From a virus (Duplodnaviria > Caudoviricetes), in the IMG/VR virus record IMGVR_UViG_3300020202_001036, positions 1-55,016 of that record: a stretch of DNA of 55,016 nt, one strand, 5' to 3'. The notes below the pieces were generated by a model that saw only the letters and a program-made list of their open reading frames with translations, did not search any database and was not told the DNA's origin. Both the position numbers and the translations under genes were made by a program. Below are positions 27,400 through 32,210 of this stretch, piece after piece. The number at the start of each line of letters is the position of its first letter. Positions within the stretch are counted from its first letter, which is position 1.

Positions 27400-28848
27400 T
27401 TGAGCCCCAACGCAACATGGCACGAGGATTGGCGCGACTGCTTCAGGGAGTACGAGCCGCGCGTCGATCTGACGGGGCACCTGCACCCGAAGCAGTTGGC
27501 TTTCAGGACCGATCCGAGCTTTCTCCGCGTGCTGCACGGGACGCGGCGCAGCGGCAAGACCGAGGTGATGTGCGTCGAGGCCATCGAGGTTGCCGACATG
27601 TTCCCGGGCGAGACCGTGCCCTGGATCATGCCCACGATCGGCATGGGCCGAGACATCGTGTTCCCCAAGATGGAGGAGCTCAGCACCAAGTTCGACCTTG
27701 GCCTGACCATCAACCGCGGCGACTTCAAGATCCACACGCCGAGCGGTGGCGTGATCCAACTCTTCGGGCTGAGCACGAAGCCCGAGGCGGAGAAGGGGCG
27801 CGGCAAGCGCTATCCCCTCGTGATCGCCGACGAGGGCGGCGCGTACCCGAACCAAGACCTGCTGAAGCTTGCGCTGGACGAGACCTTTGGCCCCGCAACG
27901 GCGGACTTCCGTGGTCTCGGGGGCCGCGGAATCGTCGTGGCGGGAACAGCGGGATACGAGCCCGACTCCTACTTCGAACGCCTCGTCGGCGGCAACTCGC
28001 ACGTGAGCAAGCTGGGCGCCTCGGTCCATTTCATGCGGATCTGGGACAATCCGTTTTTTGCGGGCCGCGAGCAGATGATCATCGACGCGCACTTGCGCGA
28101 GAAGGGGCTCGCGGCCAACGATGCCGGCTTCCGGCGCGAGTGGCTCGGCGAGTTCTGCTCGAACACGGAGGGTCTCTGCTACCAGCGCTGGAACGGCGCG
28201 CTGCTGCCGCGGCACATGATCCCGACGGGCGGCTACACCGTGATGGGCCTCGACTTGGGCCGCCATCACCCCTGCGCCTGGGTCATCGTGCGCTTCGTCG
28301 TGGTCGAGACGGTCATCGGCAACACGCTGCGCAGCGTGCACCACGGGCACGTCATTGCGAGCTTCGAAAAGACCGAGTGCGGGCTCGAAGAGATCGCGAG
28401 CATCACGCGCAAGCTCACGCAGGCCTATCACGTCAGCCACATCGCGGGCGACTCGGCGGGACTCGGGGCCACGATCATCGACGACCTGAAGACCGTCTAC
28501 GGACTCCCGATCGTCGCGGTGAAGAAGCGCGGCGACAAGTCGGGCCGCATCTGGATGATGGACTCACAGCTCGGCGCGGGCACGCTGCACGTTCACGAGG
28601 GCTGCGATTCGCTGGTGCGGCAGCTCAGGACGGTGCCTTGGGATGAGCGGAGAAAAGACCACCACCCACGTTTCAGTGACCATTCCGCCGATGCGTGCCA
28701 CTATAGCCTCACGCTCTCGCGGCAGCACGACCTCGAGGAGGAGTTGCCGCCCGAGCCCGGCACGCCTCAATGGTATGCTGCTCAGGAGAAGCGCGATGAA
28801 GAACTCACGCTGGAGTATTCTCGACACCGTCAGCAGCGCGCGGCGTGA
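27400..28848 (+). CDS. terL: Terminase large subunit
   Basis: HPKQ, Walker A GTRRSGKT, Walker B LVIADEGG, GLDLG, DHSADA. Confidence 0.92.
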   Translation: MSPNATWHEDWRDCFREYEPRVDLTGHLHPKQLAFRTDPSFLRVLHGTRRSGKTEVMCVEAIEVADMFPGETVPWIMPTIGMGRDIVFPKMEELSTKFDLGLTINRGDFKIHTPSGGVIQLFGLSTKPEAEKGRGKRYPLVIADEGGAYPNQDLLKLALDETFGPATADFRGLGGRGIVVAGTAGYEPDSYFERLVGGNSHVSKLGASVHFMRIWDNPFFAGREQMIIDAHLREKGLAANDAGFRREWLGEFCSNTEGLCYQRWNGALLPRHMIPTGGYTVMGLDLGRHHPCAWVIVRFVVVETVIGNTLRSVHHGHVIASFEKTECGLEEIASITRKLTQAYHVSHIAGDSAGLGATIIDDLKTVYGLPIVAVKKRGDKSGRIWMMDSQLGAGTLHVHEGCDSLVRQLRTVPWDERRKDHHPRFSDHSADACHYSLTLSRQHDLEEELPPEPGTPQWYAAQEKRDEELTLEYSRHRQQRAA

Positions 28849-28866
28849 CCGCGCAGAAAGCAAACG

Positions 28867-28992
28867 ATGAGGCCCTTCAGCACGCTGGGCTGGTTCATGC
28901 TCGAAGCCATCGGTGCTCTGCATCTCGACCAGACGAAAGACGTCGTGCTCCAGGCCTGGATCCTGGACACGGAGGAAAGGAAAGCATCATGA
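28867..28992 (+). CDS. Small ORF (41 aa) missing from the ORF track
   Basis: MRPFSTLGWFMLEAIGALHLDQTKDVVLQAWILDTEERKAS; ATGA coupling with the next gene. Confidence 0.35.
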   Translation: MRPFSTLGWFMLEAIGALHLDQTKDVVLQAWILDTEERKAS

Positions 28993-29525
28993 CCATCGCC
29001 GACGACATCCGCCGCGTGAAGATGCGCAAGAGCGCCGAGCTCAAAGCTCGCGAGACCCGAGCCGCCAAGCGCGAAGCGAAGCGCCTCGAGGGGCGCCTGC
29101 AAAGCAACCGCGCGCCGGGCGCGATGTTCGACACCGGATTCAAGGCGCAGCTCGACCGAAAGGCGCGCGAGGCCAAAGAGCGCGCGGGCGACCAACCGCG
29201 CCCCGACCTCGACCAGGCTATCGCGGTGGCGCGCCAGAAGGGCCACCTCCCGCCGGCTCACGATGCGGGCACGAGCTACGTCCCGACCGTAGAAGAGATC
29301 CTCGGAGACGAGGCGCTTCCCAAGCCGCCGGCTCCGACGGGCGGCGACACCGAAAATCTGCCGAGCGCTGATGATGTGTTGAACAACCCAGCCCCTGAGC
29401 CCGTGGAGGGCAGCGCGTTCACCCGGGAAGAACTCGCGGAGATCGACCGGCTGAACCCGAAGCGCGCGGTTGCGCCGGCATCAGCGCCGCGTCACCATCA
29501 GGGTGGCCGCCACAAGAGGCGGTGA
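28989..29525 (+). CDS. Hypothetical protein
   Basis: AAGGA SD before ATG 28989. Confidence 0.6.
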   Translation: MTIADDIRRVKMRKSAELKARETRAAKREAKRLEGRLQSNRAPGAMFDTGFKAQLDRKAREAKERAGDQPRPDLDQAIAVARQKGHLPPAHDAGTSYVPTVEEILGDEALPKPPAPTGGDTENLPSADDVLNNPAPEPVEGSAFTREELAEIDRLNPKRAVAPASAPRHHQGGRHKRR

Positions 29526-29537
29526 ACGGGAGCTTGG

Positions 29538-30095
29538 TTGTTCGTCTACGTCATCACCAATTCCGTCAACGGCAAGGTTTACGTCGGCAAGACGATCGCT
29601 CCCGAGAAGCGATGGGCACAGCACCAGTCCGTTGCGATGGCTGGGAAGGCAGGGCCACTGTATGACGCGATCCGGGAGGAAGGCGCTGCCGCATTCGAGG
29701 TTTCGGTAGTTGAGGAATGCGGCTCGGAAGACGAGGCCTTCGATGCCGAGAGGGTATGGATCGACCGGCTAGCGGCGACTGACCCGGACCACGGGTTCAA
29801 CCGATGCATTGGCGGCAACGGCCCGTCTGCGCTGGGCGATCATCGGTACCGCCACATCACGGCTGAGACGTGCTGGGAGCTTTACTCCGCGGGCGTCGCG
29901 GCCCCTGAGATCGCCAGGCGTCTTGGTGTCGCCTCGTACCAGCCAATCTACAGGCTGCTGAAGCGCGCTGGGTACCCCGTGAGGAACGCCGGTCGTGTCA
30001 GGAACGCTGCGGCTGGGCACGTCCTTCGTGACGCTCGGGATTCTCACTCGCCGGAGTGTCGCGCCGCCCTTGACAGCGCGCGGGGCTCCTCATAA
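29538..30095 (+). CDS. Free-standing GIY-YIG homing endonuclease with C-terminal HTH
   Basis: FVYVITNSVNGKVYVGKT..KRWAQH..E..GFN; APEIARRLGV. Confidence 0.88.
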   Translation: MFVYVITNSVNGKVYVGKTIAPEKRWAQHQSVAMAGKAGPLYDAIREEGAAAFEVSVVEECGSEDEAFDAERVWIDRLAATDPDHGFNRCIGGNGPSALGDHRYRHITAETCWELYSAGVAAPEIARRLGVASYQPIYRLLKRAGYPVRNAGRVRNAAAGHVLRDARDSHSPECRAALDSARGSS

Positions 30096-30098
30096 GAT
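30070..30098 (+). promoter_or_regulatory. Sigma70-type promoter for the capsid operon
   Basis: TTGACA (30070-30075), 17-bp spacer, TAAGAT (30093-30098). Confidence 0.7.
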
Positions 30099-30235
30099 TT
30101 TGCTAGTCTACCGGTGACTCTAAACCCGGCCGCGTCCTCGGGCCTTTGGGCGCGGGAGCCACGCTGTGGTCTCCGAAACCGAGCGCTGTGCAACGGAGCA
30201 TCCCCGTTGTTCCCTCGATTCGGAGGTCTGTCCCA

Positions 30236-31799
30236 GTGTCGGACGTTACCTTCTTCAAGGTGGAGACCTGAGAGGCGAAAGCACTCAGCGCAAACCCTTC
30301 TGTATGCTGGAACACCCGGTGGATCCGACGGTACGGGCGCAGTTGCATCCGTGAAAATCCGAGCGGTGCGGGCAATCAGCAGGCAACCGTAAAGTGGGAG
30401 CCTCAGAGGCCAAACGAAGGGCACCCTACGGGGTGATGATATGGTCCGAACACCACGGCGACGTGGTGAGCTGGCGGGAACAGAAACTAGCCAGCCTTCG
30501 CTGAACCAGCGATGCAACAGTTGTAAGTGCACCAATTTCCTCAATATTTCCTACGTCGACGGTGACCTCGCGCACCAGGCCAGCGTCCGCGCGAACCCGT
30601 CGATCAAGCTGTTCGACATCAAGGAAGCGGGCGGTAGCAGCGTCGAGTCACGCTTCATGCTCCGCGGCGCTGCGGGCATGTCGGGCAATCTCACGGACGC
30701 CCAGGCCATCGCGGCGCAGAACAAGAACGGCCGGCACTACCGCTGGCAGGTTCCGTTCGGCAAGACGCGCGGCAGCTTCCGGATCCCCTACGAAGACATC
30801 ATCCAGTCGAAGCTGAGCGAGGCCGCGGAGGCCCAGGCGCTCGAGCTCGAAATGGAGAAGGGTCTCGCCGAGTGCGGGAGCAAGCTCGTGCAGCTGCTCT
30901 TCGGGCGCTCTGGCCTCGCCGGCGGCTTCGGCGAGTGGGAAGAGACCGCGAGCGGCGACTACCCCTCGTTCTGCATCCGCTTCGCCGACCCCAGCGACGC
31001 GCGGAACTTCCAGCCCGGTGACAACGTGGTCATCGCGGCGGGCACGGGCGAGAGCGCTCAGAGCCTCGTCGGTGACGTCGGCTACGTGCTCGACTCGGAC
31101 GTCGAGGATGGCTTCATTCGCCTCGCTGCGCTGAGTGACCTCGAGACGGCGGCGAACCCAGGTGGCTGGGTCGACGACACGAACTACTACGTGTTCAACC
31201 TCGGCCTGCACGGCAACGGCGACCAGGAAGAGGTCATCGTGCCGCTCGAGGCCTACCTCCCCGCGTCGCGCGCCAACGACACGTTCCTGGGCGTGCCGCG
31301 CATCGACTCGGCGTCGCTCTCGGGCGCTCGCCTCTCGGCGACCGAGGAAACCGGCTCGATCGTGCAGCGGATCAAGCGGCTCATCGCGAAGATGCGCGGT
31401 CGCTACACCGACATCGCGAAGGGCGCGAACAAGGTCGTGCTGAACGCCGAGGACTTCGGCGCCGCGGACGAAGACCTGACCGCGCAGCTGATGCGCTCGC
31501 CGGCGACGAAGACCGAGGACGGCTTCACCCAGATCACGATCAACACCGCCAACGGCGCGACGGACCTGATCTCGGAGCCCTACAAGAACAAGGGCTCGTT
31601 CTTCGTGCTCTCGCCCGCATCGCTGAAGCTCTACTCGGCGCTCGGCGGAGGCAAGCTGCTCGACCTGGTGAAGTTCCCGGGCGGCCAGGTCACGCGCGTG
31701 ATGGAGGGCTCGAACGACTTCGAGGTCCGAACCTTCTCCAGCCTCGCCAACACCGTCGGCGCACCCTTCGCGCACGGGCGCGGGTCGACGACCTCCTGA
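30236..31799 (+). CDS. Major capsid protein, spliced: join(30236..30255,30530..31799), 429 aa
   Basis: GGAGG SD then GTG; splicing gives MSDVTFFTNFLNISYVDGD... Size, biased codon use and position after the terminase fit a capsid gene. Confidence 0.75.
30256..30529 (+). ncRNA. Group I self-splicing intron (274 nt, no ORF)
   Basis: P ATGCTGGAA 30304, Q AATCAGCAGG 30374, R TCAGAGGCCA 30403, S GATATGGTCC 30438; P3 CCCTTC/GAAGGG; IGS GGTGGAGA pairs with the ligated exons TCTT/CACC; terminal G 30529. Confidence 0.9.
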
Positions 31800-31814
31800 A
31801 AGGAGCCGACCCAG

Positions 31815-32210
31815 ATGGCACTCGGCGGCTGCGGCAGTCCAGTTCGTGGGTCCGGCAACGGGCTCACGATCTGGAACCTGGAGTGGACCTTTTCCGACGG
31901 GTCGGGCGCGGTGGCGCTCGACACGGCGCAGAGCGATCGTCACCCGGACATCGCGACGCCCGTCGCCGATGGCGGCACGGGCATCACGTCGATCCGCTTC
32001 CCCAAGTGCGACCGCGTGTGGCTCGACGCGCTCAACCACGAGCCCGCGGACGAGACCACGGCTGCGGCATACCGCCAAGTCGCGCTCGTCTCGGTCAGCC
32101 CCACCGCGGGCACGGCCGAGGTTCGTTACCTGGCCGCCAACGGCGGCGCGCTGTCGGACCCCACCAGCGGTTCGAGGACGCGGCTCACGCTGCGGCTCGA
32201 GCGCCCCTGA
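31815..32210 (+). CDS. Virion structural protein (putative)
   Basis: AAGGAG SD; directly after the capsid gene; beta-rich. Confidence 0.65.
   Translation: MALGGCGSPVRGSGNGLTIWNLEWTFSDGSGAVALDTAQSDRHPDIATPVADGGTGITSIRFPKCDRVWLDALNHEPADETTAAAYRQVALVSVSPTAGTAEVRYLAANGGALSDPTSGSRTRLTLRLERP

Follow-up and report, generated by a model that had tools for sequence, protein, structure and literature searches.

How can a phage make its major capsid protein from a gene whose reading frame closes almost as soon as it has been opened? This question is raised by the 55,016-nt sequence analyzed here, an entire IMG/VR virus record (IMGVR_UViG_3300020202_001036; Duplodnaviria, Caudoviricetes) with a completeness rating of 100%, which we refer to as the window. 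Its predicted major capsid gene starts at GTG 30236, 9 nt downstream of a GGAGG Shine-Dalgarno sequence, and without splicing the frame runs for 11 codons and ends at the TGA at 30269-30271, as the first-pass annotation of this DNA had already read. The same annotation had proposed that codon 7 is interrupted by a group I intron at 30256-30529. We find that this segment is very probably a real group I intron, spliced at 30255|30530. A covariance-model search of the whole window on both strands, which had been suggested as a check, matched positions 30246-30468 to the full length (1-253) of the Rfam model RF00028 with 64.3 bits (E = 4.6e-14), above the gathering score of 50 bits, and no other match of any Rfam family was obtained in the window at E <= 0.1.

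The insertion splits codon 7 between its second and third bases, only 20 nt away from the start codon. An 8-nt internal guide sequence can pair with both exons: positions 30263 to 30266 pair with the last four bases of exon 1 (30252-30255) to form P1, with the U30255-G30263 wobble at the 5' splice site, and positions 30259 to 30262 pair with the first four bases of exon 2 (30530-30533) to form P10. The first two bases of the intron are also those of exon 2, so that three junction pairs encode an identical protein; only 30255|30530 combines a U at position -1 with a G (G30529) ending the intron. Joining 30255 to 30530 gives a 429-aa product; the guide, the wobble, the terminal G, and the restored frame are all as first described. 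The description of the intron as ORF-less was also correct, as the longest open stretches within it had no match in Pfam, which leaves it without an endonuclease ORF, but a free-standing GIY-YIG gene upstream had been overlooked.

The spliced product was then compared to proteins encoded by uninterrupted genes. A search with the exon 2 protein returned 59 proteins, 57 of which are full length (426 to 438 aa) and start at the equivalent of GTG 30236, while the remaining two are shorter (P0054, 298 aa; P0059, 395 aa). P0002, P0004, and P0010 share the first 7 residues of exon 1 except for one S/T change, and the 429-aa product is 96.7% identical to the intron-less P0071, without a gap over 429 aa. 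The alignment to intron-less capsid homologs, which had also been proposed earlier, therefore shows the spliced product to be colinear with them.

No family was found in Pfam or PHROGs for this protein or for the scaffold-like ORF that precedes it. However, an AlphaFold2 model built on a 41-sequence alignment (pLDDT, 82.3; pTM, 0.81) had as its top Foldseek matches in the Protein Data Bank (PDB) the HK97-fold capsid proteins of SU10, A-1(L), Mic1, HK97, and T7, with a probability of 1.00. In total, 256 matches were obtained at E <= 0.001, and the top ones listed, with template modeling (TM) scores of 0.36 to 0.65, were capsid or encapsulin shell proteins. The charged, scaffold-like ORF (28845-29525) lies ahead of the gene, with the endonuclease gene between them. 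The predicted HK97 fold and the gene position thus support the earlier claim that it is the major capsid gene whose codon 7 is interrupted.

Evidence for a conserved ribozyme fold came from a second phage contig, L008, which carries a homologous 264-nt intron at the same site (81.5% nucleotide identity). We drew helices P1 to P9.1 on the window sequence (Table 1) and counted pairs on the two-sequence alignment of the window and L008. Over the 75 proposed pairs, 99.3% of the cells were paired, for two sequences and a structure drawn on one of them, compared to 35 to 46% in six slid controls. Eight pairs were changed on both sides (two each in P2, P7, and P9 and one each in P8 and P9.1), two were changed on one side, and one was broken; none of the controls gave a double change. 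Double changes in five helices would be hard to explain without selection on the fold. A P3/P7 pseudoknot can be drawn, the tip of P2 is GAAA, and the P1 hairpin (30252-30257/30261-30266) is the local minimum-energy fold. The third exon 2 codon and the guide region of L008 both differ from those of the window, and its P10 was worked out by hand. The drawn structure lacks P7.1 and P7.2. The td intron of phage T4 is of the IA type, with P7.1/P7.2, and by this typing the window intron would not be of the td type.

Table 1. Features of the interrupted capsid locus and of a related intron. Positions refer to the window, except in the last row.
Feature	Position	Strand	Remarks
GIY-YIG homing endonuclease gene	29538..30095	+	185 aa, TTG start, GGGAG 5 nt upstream; PF01541
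Candidate sigma-70-like promoter, TTGACA-17-TAAGAT	30070..30098	+	Overlaps endonuclease stop codon; consensus match only
Shine-Dalgarno GGAGG of capsid gene	30222..30226	+	Read directly; 9 nt upstream of GTG 30236
Capsid exon 1	30236..30255	+	GTG, 6 codons, and 2 bases; U30255 last
Group I intron	30256..30529	+	274 nt, no endonuclease ORF, last base G30529; RF00028 match
Internal guide sequence	30259..30266	+	Read directly; 8 nt, pairs with both exons
In-frame TGA	30269..30271	+	Closes exon 1 frame 13 nt into the intron; end of ORF 30146..30271
Catalytic core	30295..30447	+	Pair tables; compensatory double changes, 2 in P7 and 1 in P8
P3	30295-30300/30416-30421	+	Pair table
P4	30305-30310/30376-30381	+	Pair table
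P5 with extension	30315-30372	+	A-rich bulge 30354-30358
P6	30382-30402	+	Pair table
P7	30406,30408-30412/30442-30447	+	Bulged A30407 next to G-C pair
P8	30422-30435	+	L8 = UACG
ATG of mis-called 452-aa ORF	30441..30443	+	Inside J8/7 of the ribozyme
Peripheral 3' helices P9, P9.1, P9.2	30451..30512	+	Folds; compensatory changes, 2 in P9 and 1 in P9.1
P9	30451-30468	+	L9 = GNRA loop (GCGA)
P9.1	30470-30495	+	1 compensatory change
P9.2	30498-30512	+	Swapped for another short hairpin in L008
Capsid exon 2	30530..31799	+	Last base of codon 7 to stop; predicted HK97-fold major capsid protein
Group I intron of L026	1411-1712 (L026)	-	302 nt; RF00028, 72.8 bits

We then looked at the distribution of the insertion. 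Related DNA was found at 24 loci (6 viral and 18 metagenomic), 19 of which reach the 5' end of the capsid gene; 17 of these were inspected, L009 and L016 being left out as they lie on the same contigs as L001 and L005. Codon 7 is uninterrupted in 16 of the 17, and L008 alone carries an insertion. At the protein level, P0001 (445 aa, from L008) begins with unrelated residues that reach the conserved sequence exactly at the exon 2 boundary. The 90%-identity cluster of the capsid protein contains 30 members, and among the 15 listed, 3 are intact 429-aa proteins, 4 carry N-terminal extensions read out of an intron (452 aa in the window, 445 aa in L008, and 448 aa in two others), and 8, being shorter, give no information. 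Short capsid calls (373, 380, and 419 aa) were also considered as a proxy for the intron and rejected, the last 370 residues of P0067 (419 aa) being identical to those of the intron-less P0069. A capsid tree of 44 rows places all four intron-bearing alleles, along with three intron-less ones, inside a single clade of 13 rows, in a polytomy that does not resolve the number of gains or losses. Such interleaving would be expected for an element that was recently mobile or recently lost. For annotation, this means that gene callers give false N termini (452, 448, and 445 aa) to these proteins, the true window product being 429 aa long.

The two 448-aa capsid calls, P0070 and P0072, start inside an L008-like intron, and their first six residues are those of P0001. 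Just before the conserved exon 2 sequence, R-V-F replaces K-C in both, so that with the junction of the window their intron would not end in G. This suggests that the intron has another 3' end in these alleles or that splicing has moved by a few bases among the repeated Phe codons.

The runs in which the phage sequence was found are soil metagenomes. Other studies contributed two more soil runs (X2 and X3) with contigs that match the window exactly over both splice sites, and the intron is therefore not an assembly artifact; no intron-less joint was seen in these two runs. No RNA library covering 29900-30900 was listed, and contigs from four runs showed no spliced joints. One wastewater library labeled RNA-Seq, probably of DNA, contained only diverged pieces, one of them matching from exactly 30530, and is not interpretable.

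A candidate promoter overlaps the stop codon of the endonuclease gene. It agrees with the consensus at 10 of 12 positions, and the scan found 1 such site where 0.1 was expected. The intron-less L001 has TTGACA-17-TAGTAT at the equivalent place after its scaffold-like gene. The capsid transcript probably starts from the candidate at 30070-30098, which would place the endonuclease gene outside this transcript, directly downstream of the scaffold-like gene. The capsid leader (30096-30235) is long and is conserved in the equivalent spacers of L001 to L023; behind G+C-rich hairpins it has a short motif with TAAACCC at its end, in one to three copies, and in a hairpin at about 30211-30226 the GGAGG pairs with a CCUC located a few bases upstream. 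Because intron-less relatives have it too, the leader is not part of the intron, and it may be a regulatory 5' untranslated region (UTR).

Starting from the anatomy of the intron, the colinearity of the product, and the selection on structure, all of which are observed, and from established group I chemistry, we infer the following course of self-splicing by a functional intron. Transcription from the candidate promoter would give a pre-mRNA in which the guide pairs with the end of exon 1, and a free guanosine bound at P7 would attack after U30255. The guide would then align exon 2 through P10, G30529 would occupy the guanosine site, and the exons would be ligated into an mRNA encoding the predicted 429-aa HK97-fold capsid protein. 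As the unspliced RNA gives only an 11-residue peptide from the true start, synthesis of the capsid protein would depend on splicing.

An intron related to that of the window was found in a different capsid gene. A 17-nt word from the L008 P9 occurred at six loci, of which only one, L026, has an intron; the other five look like chance matches. No match was obtained when viral contigs were scanned for exact words from two conserved core stretches. The L026 intron interrupts a major capsid gene after 88 nt (after codon 29), and when the exons are joined, the product aligns colinearly, through the junction, with the capsid protein of phage Shocker. The L026 capsid protein matches phrog_14242 (E = 3e-46) and shares 27 to 30% identity with capsid proteins annotated in Microbacterium and Arthrobacter phages, while no sequence similarity to the window capsid protein could be detected (best E, 0.30). 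The two introns have the core and the P9-P9.1 region in common, and P3 and P7 are kept through several double changes.

How did the intron reach a capsid gene? The free-standing gene upstream of it encodes a predicted GIY-YIG homing endonuclease that matched PF01541 with 50.7 bits (cut-off, 22.6; E = 2.3e-13) and phrog_314, annotated as "homing endonuclease," with E = 4.3e-22. The protein could be aligned to the catalytic domain of I-TevI (PDB 1MK0/1LN0) with 25 bits (E = 1.4e-4), and it keeps both tyrosine motifs as well as the catalytic arginine and glutamate (equivalent to R27 and E75 of I-TevI, the residues altered in the 1LN0 and 1MK0 structures). A weak helix-turn-helix match at residues 115 to 143 was below the cut-off, while the L008 copy has an HTH_23 match above it. 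With its GIY-YIG domain, the same key residues, and a C-terminal helix-turn-helix DNA-binding part, the enzyme resembles that of the T4 td/I-TevI system, and in both systems the phage intron is of group I and its 5' splice site is soon followed by an in-frame stop. However, I-TevI is encoded within the td intron, unlike the window endonuclease.

We give an even chance to the view that this endonuclease is the mobility partner of the intron, acting in trans in what has been called collaborative homing. The enzyme would cut intron-less capsid alleles near the insertion site, and repair from an intron-bearing genome would copy, in one piece, everything from the endonuclease gene through the 5' UTR and exon 1 to the intron. 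By interrupting the target, the intron would protect its own genome. The window contains exactly one GIY-YIG gene and one group I intron, and in its 55 kb the end of the gene is only 160 nt away from the insertion site, on the upstream side. In L008, a homologous endonuclease gene (L008 17-661) occupies the same position, in the same order. By contrast, no endonuclease was detected with tblastn in any of the 11 intron-less loci (13 if L009 and L016, the duplicates, are counted) spanning the scaffold-like gene and the capsid start, where the spacer between the two genes is about 230 to 460 nt long, and the closest complete intron-less genome (56.5 kb) has no GIY-YIG gene at all. Intron and endonuclease are thus both present in two loci and both absent from all these relatives, although the two positives belong to one shallow capsid clade and may go back to a single inherited event.

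Other observations weigh against a partnership. The endonucleases of the window and L008 are both intact (dN/dS, 0.19), but they are only 54% identical with a dS of 1.34, a value near saturation, compared to 95% amino acid identity and a dS of 0.55 for the capsid proteins and 81.5% nucleotide identity for the introns. The window enzyme also lacks about 36 residues that correspond to the second helix-turn-helix repeat of the L008 enzyme, and it may have a shorter target, be partially decayed, or have had a different history. Furthermore, the 15-kb fragment carrying the related L026 intron contains no GIY-YIG gene. A different explanation, in which the intron does splice, would account for this: the endonuclease gene would be an independent element homing to the scaffold-capsid spacer or to another nearby site, while the intron was inherited, precisely deleted, or moved by other means. 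Homing endonuclease genes commonly lie beside essential phage genes without an intron, and in one study, 31% of T5orf172 neighborhoods contained a capsid gene (10.1101/2023.03.23.533998). The second endonuclease gene of an L008-type contig, described next, would also fit an independent element, whereas the identical distribution of gene and intron and their proximity are harder to reconcile with one. We rate this explanation as a serious one, at somewhat less than an even chance.

The contig in question, L024, comes from the same assembly as L008. It contains a capsid 3' end (94% identical) followed, at approximately 234-524 on the plus strand, by a second, different GIY-YIG gene, whose product is 37% identical to that of the window (PF01541, E = 7.9e-10). 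In the window, this place is taken by an unrelated 131-aa ORF. An L008-type relative may therefore have endonuclease genes on both sides of its capsid gene.

Splicing itself has to be weighed against several unfavorable points. The L008 intron scored 46 bits against RF00028, under the cut-off of 50. The covariation comes from only two sequences, so that its statistics are thin, and the fraction of paired cells is favored by the origin of the structure. P1 consists of only four exon pairs and two intron pairs. The minimum free energy (MFE) of the intron alone is unexceptional (z score, -1.28; 20 of 200 shuffles folded equally well), and because this is not unusual for its composition, the support comes from the covariance model and from comparison rather than from thermodynamics. 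Finally, the start codon and the 5' splice site are separated by only 20 nt, so that P1 and the guide would be hidden beneath any ribosome engaged in initiation or in termination. The in-frame stop 13 nt into the intron follows the usual pattern of phage introns, and T4 introns reportedly depend on translation of the pre-mRNA.

The short P1 and the ordinary folding stability might indicate that the intron is inactive, the capsid gene broken, and the genome a defective or dead-end variant. Against this, no core pairing has been lost, P7 keeps its bulged A and P1 its wobble pair, the intron still ends in G, the structure has been kept by compensatory change across two lineages, the identical sequence recurs in soil metagenomes of three studies, and the record is rated complete; we therefore hold an inactive intron to be very improbable. 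Even less credible is a capsid protein translated without any splicing from ATG 30441, with the intron-like segment a decayed relic serving as leader and N-terminal coding sequence, since the 452-aa ORF is indeed open, in frame with exon 2, preceded by G-rich bases, and present in databases (P0060), but its 29 extra residues are unmatched in the 57 full-length homologs and wholly different in the L008 read-through despite about 81% DNA identity, its ATG lies within the ribozyme core, the conserved 7-residue N terminus is encoded intact behind a good Shine-Dalgarno sequence 274 nt upstream, and the eight compensatory double changes point to selection on RNA structure and not on a peptide. The start at 30441 had been called wrong in the first-pass annotation, and this is borne out by the homologs, which align to the spliced N terminus; the peptide encoded by 30441-30529 is unconserved even in the intron-bearing allele of L008.

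Returning to a spliced intron with an endonuclease partner, a broader reading, which we put forward tentatively and consider unlikely as a whole, is that a single cassette, consisting of the endonuclease gene, the capsid promoter, the 5' UTR, the 20-nt exon 1, and the intron, is converted as a unit, and that major capsid genes in soil phages have been colonized by this intron lineage repeatedly. A ribosome at GTG 30236 would cover the 5' splice site, so that initiation and splicing would exclude each other on one RNA, and this could act as a gate for the timing or quality of capsid production. If this were true, the whole start of capsid expression would be replaced in related phages during coinfection.

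We next compared this locus to known systems. The first-pass annotation had set the finding against phage introns best known from DNA-metabolism genes. This framing loses some of its surprise, as group I introns in phage capsid genes have been published (PMC3706429). In LittleE, a Cluster J mycobacteriophage, splicing of a capsid intron was shown by reverse transcription-PCR (RT-PCR) and N-terminal sequencing, and a capsid-gene intron of the lactococcal phage Tuc2009 is cited in the same work (PMC3706429). As in the window, the LittleE intron is of the group I type and interrupts the gene of the most abundant virion protein in a phage whose host is high in GC, exon 1 has U and the intron G as its last base, and the element was recognized by comparison to intron-less relatives. 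However, the LittleE intron is about 820 nt long with its own endonuclease ORF, while the window intron has 274 nt and its endonuclease gene lies outside, upstream. The window insertion, unlike that of LittleE, is only 20 nt from the start codon, and the window intron is known from sequence alone.

In collaborative homing, alleles that lack the intron are cut at its insertion site by a free-standing endonuclease, and both elements are then copied in together (PMC3984707; 10.1101/2023.03.23.533998). The pairs described are the psbA intron of cyanophage S-PM2 with the free-standing F-CphI and the DNA polymerase introns of T3/T7-like phages, likewise with a free-standing endonuclease (PMC3984707). 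The locus described here resembles them in that a free-standing endonuclease is proposed to move with an intron. Their cleavage sites have been mapped, whereas the window pair is known from its genes; moreover, the window enzyme is of the GIY-YIG type and F-CphI is Endo VII-like, and the host gene is a capsid gene rather than psbA or a polymerase gene.

A closer arrangement was reported for the terminase intron of the Vibrio phage ICP1, where a gene for T5orf172, a GIY-YIG-related domain, lies next to the N-terminal exon (10.1101/2023.03.23.533998 = PMC10448857). In both cases, the endonuclease gene is located beside a short 5' exon, outside the intron, in a late structural or packaging gene, while the interrupted gene, the host group, and the endonuclease subfamily differ. 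The second endonuclease gene flanking the capsid gene in L024 is reminiscent of the "HEG islands" around capsid genes described in the same work, whose authors also propose an alternative origin by turnover of an endonuclease out of an intron (10.1101/2023.03.23.533998). Introns in structural and packaging genes are abundant in metagenomic phages according to a further study (PMC12880540). In the open-access text searched, we found no description of this phage group or of a pair formed by a GIY-YIG gene and an ORF-less intron at a capsid gene.

The window intron is thus a well-supported additional example of the published capsid-gene introns and of the pairs of an intron with a free-standing endonuclease, and with it the range of capsid-gene group I introns now includes a high-GC lineage of uncultured soil phages. 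The pair is natural and compact, intron-less alleles with 97% identity are available, and a proposed route to mobile introns could be put to a biochemical test with it. The splice site 20 nt from the start codon also makes the intron a convenient case for studying ribosome loading versus ribozyme folding on a very highly expressed late mRNA.

The genome around the capsid locus has a G+C content of 66.1%. None of its nine large ORFs searched matched a PHROGs family, and 1 of 10 matched Pfam, with a sub-threshold integrase match only; the large ORFs without a family include those of 1665, 1115, 776, 704, and 661 aa. No capsid relative was found among the genomes of 185,579 prokaryote species (one genome per species), and a 2.5-kb query (29400-31900) had no close DNA relative among GenBank phages. 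The whole phage lineage is uncharacterized. No tRNA gene was found in the window. In the intron-less relative L002, an Rfam tRNA match of 43.1 bits lies at 2031-2155 on the plus strand, just upstream of the scaffold-like gene. It covers the full 71-position model in 125 nt and may represent a tRNA gene with an insertion of approximately 50 nt.

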